This document shows, piece after piece, positions 18,870 through 45,250 of a stretch of DNA of 64,000 nucleotides. The number at the start of each line of letters is the position of its first letter. The first letter of the stretch is position 1. The notes under the pieces were generated by a model. That model was not told the origin of the DNA, did not search any database, and saw only the letters and a list, made by a program, of their open reading frames with translations. A program made the translations under genes and the position numbers. The DNA comes from a virus, in the IMG/VR virus record IMGVR_UViG_3300020442_000006, positions 96,001 through 160,000 of that record; one strand, written 5' to 3'.

Positions 18870-18954
18870 CGGAAAAGGTGGGATTCGAACCCACGGACGC
18901 TCTCACGTCGTCGGTTTTCAAGACCGATGCCATCAACCACTCGACCACTTTTCC
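18870..18954 (-). tRNA. tRNA-Ser(UGA)
   Basis: GGAAAAG acceptor, TCGGT-CTTGAAA-ACCGA anticodon arm, long variable arm, GTTCGAATCC; no encoded CCA. Confidence 0.93.
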
Positions 18955-24539: not shown

Positions 24540-24640
24540 CGGGGAACACTGAATTAAATATTCCTGCCTTACCCTCCAAGGCAGGTATGAGAGACTGTTA
24601 TTTAATGTCGCTGTTTAGTCTCGGTGAGGCGACGAAGTAT
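24540..24640 (-). ncRNA. PhotoRC-II-like RNA motif in the psbA 5' UTR
   Basis: CCGAGACT...AGTCTC pairing and CCTGCCTT-GGAGGGT-AAGGCAGG hairpin upstream of phage psbA; identity from memory of the motif, not a CM search. Confidence 0.65.
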
Positions 24641-24675
24641 GAAGTGTTTACGTTTCGTAACATTCAACAGTATAT

Positions 24676-27062: not shown

Positions 27063-27135
27063 CGGGTCAGGCAGGATTCGAACCTGCGACCGACTGCTTA
27101 GAAGGCAGTTGCACTATCCACTGTGCTACTGACCC
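27063..27135 (-). tRNA. tRNA-Arg(UCU)
   Basis: GGGTCAG acceptor, ACTGC-CTTCTAA-GCAGT anticodon arm, GTTCGAATCC. Confidence 0.95.
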
Positions 27136-29123: not shown

Positions 29124-29370
29124 CCGTTCCTTTAGTCGTTTGCGTCCCACGGACATTCAGGAGTTGCCTCTTGAATGACTTGAACCAACTCGATCTTCTC
29201 CCCAGGGGAGAGTTGTTCGTGCCCCTGTACGTTTTGGATAAACCTCAACGCATCGTGACACTGAATATCGGTGTACATTAACAGCAACAAGTGCATTAAC
29301 ATAGTTGTTCAAGCATAGGGATGAACGCTCCGTTCCGCGACTTACTTGCGTCCTCCAAGGAGGATGAACG
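29124..29370 (-). ncRNA. tandem glutamine-riboswitch-like (glnA/Downstream-peptide-like) elements
   Basis: Two CGTTCA-TCC(C)...GG(G)A-CGCAA-N-GGAACGG units upstream of a DUF4278-like gene. Confidence 0.6.
29132..29296 (-). CDS. small protein (54 aa) nested in the riboswitch-like RNA
   Basis: Manual ORF MHLLLLMYTDIQCHDAL...EATPECPWDAND. Confidence 0.65.
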   Translation of the reverse strand: MHLLLLMYTDIQCHDALRFIQNVQGHEQLSPGEKIELVQVIQEATPECPWDAND

Positions 29371-45021: not shown

Positions 45022-45042
45022 AAACCTGATTATGTAATGGTG

Positions 45043-45213
45043 TGTGGGAGGTAGGAATACATTATACCTACAAGTTATGGGAATCGCTAGTGCGAAAATT
45101 AGTACATAACAACAACAGTCATCCTGGTAAGGACTTCTCCGAAGAGCGGGCACCACCCCTGACCGTTTACATTACCCCGCCTAATTCCAACAGGGTTATT
45201 CAGTCACTCCCGT
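45043..45213 (-). ncRNA. manA-like structured RNA
   Basis: ~170-nt GC-richer noncoding stretch GGGAGTGACTGAATAA...GGTGGTGC...ATTCCC..GTAGG..CCTACCTCCCAC behind a TTGACA/TATATT promoter; resemblance from memory. Confidence 0.55.
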
Positions 45214-45250
45214 GTCGGTTGATCGGTCCGACTCCTATAATATAACCGAC

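Follow-up and report, generated by a model that had tools for sequence, protein, structure and literature searches.

The window analysed here comprises 64,000 nucleotides of viral DNA and is part of a 187-kb T4-like cyanophage record (IMG/VR record IMGVR_UViG_3300020442_000006, positions 96,001 to 160,000). Besides a manA RNA and a PhotoRC-II RNA, it carries nrdB, a 2OG-Fe(II) oxygenase gene and talC. The manA RNA (45041-45233, 123 bits), the PhotoRC-II RNA (24550-24646, 62.5 bits) and two tRNA genes (27063-27135 and 18870-18954) all score above Rfam thresholds. These four elements, and every feature of the window described below, lie on the minus strand, and the coordinates are those of the window unless another locus is named.

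The locus under study begins with a predicted sigma-70-like promoter (29406-29378), recognised by its consensus match, with a -35 element TTGCTA at 29406-29401 and an extended -10 element TATCAT at 29383-29378; relatives carry TTGACT-17-TATAAT at the same place. From the predicted promoter position, transcription would start at about the first base of a riboswitch-like RNA (29370-29124). The RNA is followed by a gene for a 47-aa DUF4278-like (IF17-like) protein (29089-28946), the putative regulated gene, which had been noticed in an earlier reading made from the sequence only and lies where that reading placed it. Its product matches phrog_5049 with an E value of 5e-22 and Pfam DUF4278 (PF14105) with an E value of 3.1e-5 and 24.7 bits, against a cut-off of 25.3, and YRG repeats are visible in its sequence. 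An intrinsic-terminator-like hairpin with a U-tract (28922-28901) marks the end of the unit. With a promoter just upstream and a terminator-like hairpin downstream, the element would therefore lie in a short unit of its own, and the stretch is best explained as the leader of a short phage transcription unit made up of promoter, riboswitch with a gene inside, DUF4278 gene and terminator.

Directly 5' of the first aptamer base, we observed a 7-bp palindrome, GGGUAUG-UUAU-CAUAUCC (29391-29374), which encloses the -10 box. It occupies the same position at the loci L001-L007 and at many IMG/VR loci, and its arms vary among phages with their complementarity kept (for example GGTCTATAATAGACC and GTCATGCTATCATGAC). 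The palindrome could act as an RNA hairpin, a DNA hairpin or an operator.

Positions 29370-29124 hold two sets of the glutamine-riboswitch core CGUUCA, CGCA and GGAACGG. Unit 1 reads CGTTCA-TCCTCC-TT-GGAGGA-CGCAAGTAAGTCGC-GGAACGG (29370-29330). After a spacer of 2-3 nt comes the 5' half of unit 2, CGTTCA-TCCC (29327-29318), while its 3' half, GGGA-CGCAA-ACGACTAAA-GGAACGG, is found at 29148-29124, and an open reading frame (29302-29132) ends with WDAND* within this 3' half. All of these elements had been located correctly by the sequence-only reading, and its proposal of a glutamine-riboswitch-like RNA 5' of a DUF4278 gene is supported. The core CGUUCA, CG(G/C)A and GGAACG(G) is present in both sets and invariant in an alignment of 87 sequences, as are the outer core CGCA (29350-29347) and the loop-E strand AGUA that follows it (29346-29343), which match the RF01739 consensus CGGAAGUA. 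The features of the type-I class, namely the core, a covarying P1, a P2 after CGUUCA and a P3 with loop E, are all found in the window, and we infer from these motifs that the RNA senses glutamine.

Covariance-model searches with Infernal, which had been proposed earlier as a check, gave a divided answer: the window stays below the gathering score (GA) of both glutamine models, whereas compact homologues without an open reading frame exceed that of RF01739. On the window, RF01739 (glnA class, type I) reaches 28.3 bits (GA 35) and RF01704 (Glutamine-II) 30.1 bits (GA 33), each on unit 1 alone. In the compact loci L014 and L041, RF01739 takes the whole as one composite (43.6 and 40.3 bits; GA 35) that runs from the CGUUC of unit 1 to the GGAACG of unit 2, with AGU/ACU as P3 and a P3 insert of 38-46 nt; the window falls below the RF01739 gathering score because of the 200-nt content in its P3. 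The RF01704 model shrinks P2 on the window to a few ill-matched pairs, two of them flagged as non-standard. A Glutamine-II pseudoknot, with GGAACGG in the loop of the P2 hairpin, was rejected, since it scores below GA and the covariation places these bases in P3 and in the inner P1. At L012, the only locus with open reading frames in both hairpins that was scanned, Rfam returned no glutamine riboswitch even at E values up to 5. Minimum-free-energy folding of a 301-nt region gave an uninformative result (z = -1.7) and missed the long-range helices.

The layout recurs in about 200 phage loci of IMG/VR and GenBank and is missed by standard annotation. Seven GenBank phages of different genera show the same order of motifs as the window. 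An IMG/VR scan with a pattern that spanned the core of unit 1 and the beginning of unit 2, without the 3' half, returned at least 120 stretches, and among those listed the untargeted 3' half GGGA-CGCA-AACGACU-G/AAA-GGAACGG was present in 123. Across 120 unique IMG/VR loci, this 3' half follows at a distance of 144-199 nt in 110 and of 16-31 nt in 10; the latter are plain hairpins with the same 3' half, and the split unit is therefore homologous to the compact one. A tblastn search of phage genomes with a family member found the gene likewise embedded in S-RSM4, S-RIM8, S-WAM2, S-SCSM1 and S-PRM1. The recurrence of the split layout in 110 of 120 unique loci, obtained with a pattern that did not contain the 3' half, and in five phage genomes identified purely through protein similarity, is far beyond chance. 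The element is confirmed as real, and we regard it as a variant of a known riboswitch class. In a scan of host-genome contigs with a strict pattern, which might miss divergent host versions, the element was found only on contigs resembling misbinned or contaminating cyanophage DNA; seven other host-contig matches were discarded as chance hits without the rest of the motif.

The 5' strand of the inner P2, UCCC(U)AUG (29321-29314), pairs across 162 nt with CGUGGGA (29151-29145), which lies within Pro-Trp-Asp codons of the nested gene. In the 110 loci bearing an open reading frame, pairing at the four positions adjoining CGUUCA/CGCA is 99-100%, with UA 102, CG 6 and GC 2 at the first, CG 108 and AU 2 at the second, CG 103, UA 5 and UG 2 at the third, and CG 81, UA 20, UG 5 and AU 3 at the fourth; these and all other pair counts given here are raw counts over loci, without correction for phylogeny. 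The stem around the gene covaries at positions 1-5. When 87 sequences were aligned with MAFFT, five of the seven pairs of the gene-spanning stem proved compensatory, as did all four scored pairs of the outer P2 hairpin UCCUCC-UU-GGAGGA (29364-29351). Over the whole structure, 95% of cells in this alignment are paired and 11 pairs have changed on both sides; none of 500 shuffles reached the observed values, and slid registers gave 30-52% pairing. The long-range TCCC/GGGA stem, first proposed from the one sequence, is thus upheld by compensatory covariation across cyanophage loci.

The gene enclosed by this stem belongs to the phrog_504 family (29302-29132); it encodes 56 aa from the AUG at 29302 or 54 aa from the AUG at 29296, and ends with UAA at 29134-29132. 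That the open reading frame in the stem-loop of unit 2 is a real gene is supported by its match to phrog_504 (E 5.8e-17, residues 5-56 on profile positions 2-53 of 53), by lengths that vary in multiples of three and by the alignment of all versions as one family, which has a hydrophobic N-terminus and two invariant Cys. The named relatives are all cyanophage proteins; comparison with the ESM Atlas returned unnamed viral clusters only, and no match was found in Pfam. An AlphaFold2 model of the protein consists of three helices (pLDDT 82.6) and gave no match in the PDB by Foldseek at E <= 0.001. The last five codons and the stop double as the inner CGCA, the 3' strand of P3 and loop E. Across 42 unique 53-codon versions, third-codon entropy is 0-0.16 bits in these last five codons (TGG GAC GCA AAC GAC), compared with 0.7-2.0 bits in codons 2-48. 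Some nested open reading frames stop at a UAG within the stem and have no DAND tail, and the tail is therefore imposed by the RNA.

In most relatives, the AUG within the stem (29316-29314 in the window) is the start codon of the gene; in the window it is out of frame via an extra 13-15 nt. Upstream of it lies GGAG (29331-29328), a candidate ribosome-binding site of the nested gene. In one set of loci, this spacer GGAG is present in 101 of 109 with an open reading frame and in none of 10 without, and it occurs in only about 30% of the class with a C/G pair in the inner P1, so that its sequence distribution half supports a role as ribosome-binding site. In the window, the stem AUG opens a 6-codon mini-ORF, MLEQLC, a variant peculiar to this phage. 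Its stop, UAA at 29298-29296, overlaps the in-frame AUG of the gene at 29296-29294 (UAAUG), an arrangement compatible with termination-reinitiation. The nested gene is unannotated or annotated with inconsistent starts (39, 51 and 64 codons) in S-RSM4, S-RIM8, S-WAM2, S-H35, S-B64 and S-RIM32.

On the evidence of covariation, the two units are shown to be interlocked rather than side by side, in a nested topology with swapped P1 strands. The inner P1 is the local hairpin GGAACGG-AG-CGUUC (29336-29323), in which GAACG (29335-29331) of unit 1 pairs with CGUUC (29327-29323) of unit 2. In IMG/VR, GGAACGG as the 3' strand of unit 1 occurs with CGUUCA as the 5' strand of unit 2 at no fewer than 120 loci, and GCAACGG with CGUUGA at no fewer than 80 unique loci; S-PRM1 carries the latter combination too. 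A targeted IMG/VR scan found no locus with GGAACGG and CGUUGA and none with GCAACGG and CGUUCA. This G:C to C:G swap without mixed forms indicates that the GAACG of unit 1 has the neighbouring CGUUC of unit 2 as its partner. Within the C/G class, the outer strands are either unchanged (CGUUCA with GGAACGG, 63 unique loci) or changed jointly to CGUUUA and GAAACGG (C:G to U:A, 6 unique loci), and the CGUUC of unit 1 (29370-29366) therefore pairs with the distant GAACG of unit 2 (29129-29125), forming the outer P1. Apparent exceptions to this pattern proved to be matches to loop sequences. The initial layout, with unit 1 complete in itself and unit 2 split, has to give way to this nested fold. 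RNAalifold on seven compact loci (L014, L026, L028, L040, L041, L055 and L121) recovered the outer P1. The same calculation proposed a pairing of UCGUU in unit 2 with AACGA in its own 3' linker, which was set aside as lacking covariation; it may be an alternative, ligand-free conformer. Local P1 pairing within unit 1 may likewise be a folding intermediate.

The helix that joins the two units is P3, whose 5' strand AGUCG (29342-29338) pairs with CGACU (29138-29134). The conserved 3' block (29144-29124) reads inner CGCA (29144-29141), AA, CGACU, loop-E AAA (29133-29131) and outer GGAACGG (29130-29124). Compensatory forms among 123 loci are GUCA/UGAC (4), AAUCG/CGAUU (2) and AAUCU/AGAUU (1), with several G-U intermediates, and none of the 123 has a broken pair among the five AGUCG/CGACU positions; in the 87-sequence alignment, P3 is 100% paired. 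AGUA precedes P3 in unit 1 and G/AAA follows it in unit 2, and these are the two loop-E strands of the type-I consensus, with AAA in the window in place of the consensus GAA, a point that, like the sub-threshold Rfam score of unit 1 alone, counts against the reading preferred below. The complementarity of AGTCG and CGACT had been taken earlier as an optional contact between units; the pairing itself is confirmed by compensatory changes, and its role is instead that of a shared P3 of a type-I aptamer.

The fold is best explained, from these sequence patterns, as a type-I aptamer with a second aptamer, circularly permuted, attached to the far end of its P3. The outer aptamer would consist of its long-range P1 (29370-29366 with 29129-29125), its own P2, CGCA, and loop E (AGUA/AAA) on P3. 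The inner aptamer would be a circular permutation at the far end of P3, with the local GAACG-GAG-CGUUC (29335-29323) as its P1 and with a P2 (29321-29314 with 29151-29145) that closes around the whole small gene.

The outer P2 hairpin can also enclose a gene. In 35 unique loci, it contains a gene of 66-75 aa (phrog_6471) that starts 10-11 nt after CGUUCA and stops with UAG, UGA or UAA in the 3' strand or in the loop-E AAGUAA, and the stem around it covaries. The phrog_504 and phrog_6471 families are remote homologues (hhalign probability 93.5%, E 2.3e-7). Classified by the content of the outer and inner hairpins, 82 loci are compact/ORF, the class of the window, 32 are ORF/ORF, 8 are compact/compact and 2 are ORF/compact.

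The expression platform spans 29135-29097. Its first strand, CUAAAG (29135-29130), can pair with CUUUAG (29105-29100), which adjoins GGAG (29100-29097), where ribosomes would bind to start the DUF4278 gene; the two platform strands flank a small linker hairpin. CU(A/G)AAG, made up of the last bases of P3, loop E and the initial G of GGAACGG, is complementary to CUU(U/C)AG. This platform helix covaries: all six positions are pairable in 102 of 108 unique loci, and raw counts of the variable pair are A-U 33, G-C 49, G-U 24 and A-C 0. The downstream gene is DUF4278-like in every form checked. Glutamine riboswitches 5' of DUF4278/gifB genes are ON switches that turn on translation (PMC6212724).

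Building on the observed helices, the observed coding status of the nested gene and the observed platform helix, we propose a mechanistic model. Glutamine would stabilise P1, P3 and loop E, and CUAAAG (29135-29130) would be withdrawn from its partner CUUUAG (29105-29100) next to the ribosome-binding site, switching on translation of the IF17-like DUF4278 protein. By analogy with known glutamine riboswitches, we infer the ON direction, in which glutamine keeps CUAAAG in the aptamer and frees the ribosome-binding site. The initiation region of the nested gene overlaps the inner P1 and P2; farther along, the inner core, P3, loop E and the outer P1 lie under its last codons and under a ribosome that terminates there. 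This geometry fits the coupling to ribosome traffic proposed in the sequence-only reading: a ribosome starting on or crossing the gene would first melt the inner P1 and P2 and, later, P3 together with loop E and the outer P1. Since the ribosome must melt aptamer helices, folding of the aptamers and translation of the nested gene would be mutually exclusive, the nested gene would consequently be favoured when the aptamers are unfolded, and every ribosome passage would reset the sensor. As a whole explanation, interlocked aptamers with a gene in the inner P2, a glutamine-ON platform and translation exclusive of folding appear to us probable. A ribosome ending at UAA 29134-29132 would also unmask the ribosome-binding site of the DUF4278 gene, which is a point against this explanation. 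More tentatively, and with considerable doubt, the interlocked double aptamer may serve as a gene scaffold with reciprocal, ribosome-resettable outputs, giving nested proteins at low glutamine and the IF17-like protein at high glutamine.

A serious rival accepts the fold as described and makes the nested gene only a passenger, whose translation has no regulatory role; the P2 loops would be the one insertion-tolerant place where compact genomes lodge small genes that share the promoter, and the long-range stem would be kept just to preserve the riboswitch. Compact forms without an open reading frame keep the same core and platform, the P2 loops also accept non-coding insertions of 20-40 nt, and neither the GGAG spacer nor the pairing of stem positions 6-7, which would engage the start codon and holds in only about 45% of loci, is universal, both points counting against the preferred explanation. 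However, the start codon lies 10-11 nt past CGUUCA in nearly all loci and in both hairpins, and, with the stop inside the 3' strand or past it, ribosomes have to traverse the core. In addition, the remote homology of the genes in the two hairpins suggests that aptamer and gene evolved as one module. We regard the passenger role as possible but unlikely.

Less probable still is that the RNA senses a ligand other than glutamine or binds a protein, or that ligand binding is confined to the outer aptamer, with the inner one as a structural scaffold. The inner unit is a circular permutation, has no loop E and tolerates the G:C to C:G swap in its P1. Core pairs described for the glutamine aptamer are G40:C1 and G41:C19 (PMC6698751); a linker of 2-3 nt that closes the inner P1 while G41 pairs with the cytosine of CGCA may be sterically strained, so that the inner unit might not bind ligand, a point against the preferred explanation. 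Against the present rival, both units keep every core nucleotide that the validated glutamine classes have in common, the inner CGCA and GGAACGG do not vary even where a change would be synonymous, and the downstream gene is the usual DUF4278 target (PMC6212724). Finally, a plain tandem of two independent aptamers, each with its own P1 and with AGUCG/CGACU as an optional kissing contact, is very improbable: Rfam does align unit 1 alone as self-contained (28-30 bits) and unit 2 alone in compact loci (30-34 bits), and local pairing, which forms first in transcription, could be a folding intermediate, but separate P1 helices would leave at least 69 unique loci with C/C and G/G (or U/C and G/A) mismatches where the nested pairing stays Watson-Crick, mixed P1 forms are absent from IMG/VR, and AGUA after the unit-1 CGCA and GAA before the unit-2 GGAACGG stand as loop E requires.

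Compared with known systems, the preferred nested fold resembles glutamine riboswitch type I (glnA RNA, RF01739) in its core (CGUUCA, P2 hairpin, CG(G/C)AAGUA, P3, GAAGGAACG(G)), in its three-way junction with loop E, in its place upstream of DUF4278/IF17-like genes and in being a probable ON switch by release of the ribosome-binding site. It differs in that P3 is not a hairpin but bears a second, circularly permuted aptamer at its far end, and in that whole protein genes (150-225 nt) are lodged in P2 loops, with some of the core being coding. The tandem glycine riboswitch likewise combines two homologous aptamers, inter-aptamer structure and a single expression platform; its aptamers lie side by side, joined by tertiary contacts with no coding sequence inside, whereas those described here are nested through a shared helix and contain coding sequence. 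Group I and group II introns also keep long-range helices around a protein gene in a tolerant loop. They are ribozymes whose peripheral-loop open reading frames encode their own mobility or maturase proteins, whereas the host RNA here is a metabolite sensor and the open reading frame runs into the conserved core. Interplay of a riboswitch with translation of a short leader open reading frame is reportedly the subject of work by Kipkorir in 2024 on atypical B12 riboswitches of M. tuberculosis (cited as reference 25 of 10.1101/2024.07.19.603033), in which, going by the title, a uORF interacts with the riboswitch; by that title, the present case is set apart by a gene of 50-75 aa inside the aptamer itself.

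Two glutamine aptamer cores per leader are also found in tandem glutamine riboswitches, which have been catalogued as pseudo-cooperative doublets (PMC2864571, PMC9481103), with 157 doublets and 4 triplets and several expression platforms (PMC9481103). Unlike such independent tandems, the units described here are separated by a spacer of 2-3 nt without a platform between them, have swapped P1 strands and share a single P3 as well as a single platform. That T4-like cyanophages carry glutamine riboswitches is known (PMC9964418). The literature searched yielded no account of the nested topology, of a shared P3 or of genes inside the aptamer, and a prior description may still exist.

These findings indicate that a metabolite-sensing aptamer can look functional, with covarying helices, though split by a gene of 160-225 nt and sharing its core with codons, neither of which is assumed by riboswitch searches. 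As a solution, the nested, helix-sharing aptamer pair with its circular permutation differs from the tandems reported to date, which lie side by side. The layout also explains the under-reporting of cyanophage glutamine riboswitches by Rfam, the window being sub-threshold and the double-ORF form without a match. For infections of marine Synechococcus and Prochlorococcus, it links the small phage proteins of phrog_504 and phrog_6471 to nitrogen sensing and to a probable homologue of glutamine-synthetase inhibitor. If the tentative gene-scaffold reading is true, translation of an internal gene would be part of the switching cycle of a riboswitch, and one or two small Cys-pair proteins would be encoded inside sensor stem-loops, with start codons lodged in aptamer helices and stops in the stem or core. 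The natural variants, compact or ORF-bearing in four combinations, provide a ready experimental series.

Further arrangements were seen among the relatives. Metatranscriptome contigs (X1-X4) cover the conserved halves, with joints at window positions 29147-29318 that skip about 168 nt, and carry short loop letters of their own. RNA processing of the inner stem was considered for these contigs and rejected, since their loop letters differ and point to compact homologues of co-occurring phages. At L064 (6502-6830), three aptamer units stand in a row: a self-contained unit that reaches the Rfam threshold (35.1 bits, RF01739) is followed by an interlocked pair with an open reading frame in the first hairpin of the pair. 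Within the linker hairpin that separates the riboswitch from the ribosome-binding site, about 18 loci carry a conserved extra module, AACGGAUCC-hairpin-GAGAAGGUUAA, which is absent in the window and is found at L012 (8222-8290), L004, L034, L051, L088, L121, L144, L145 and others. A comparison of this module with Rfam gave no match; it may be a further regulatory element.
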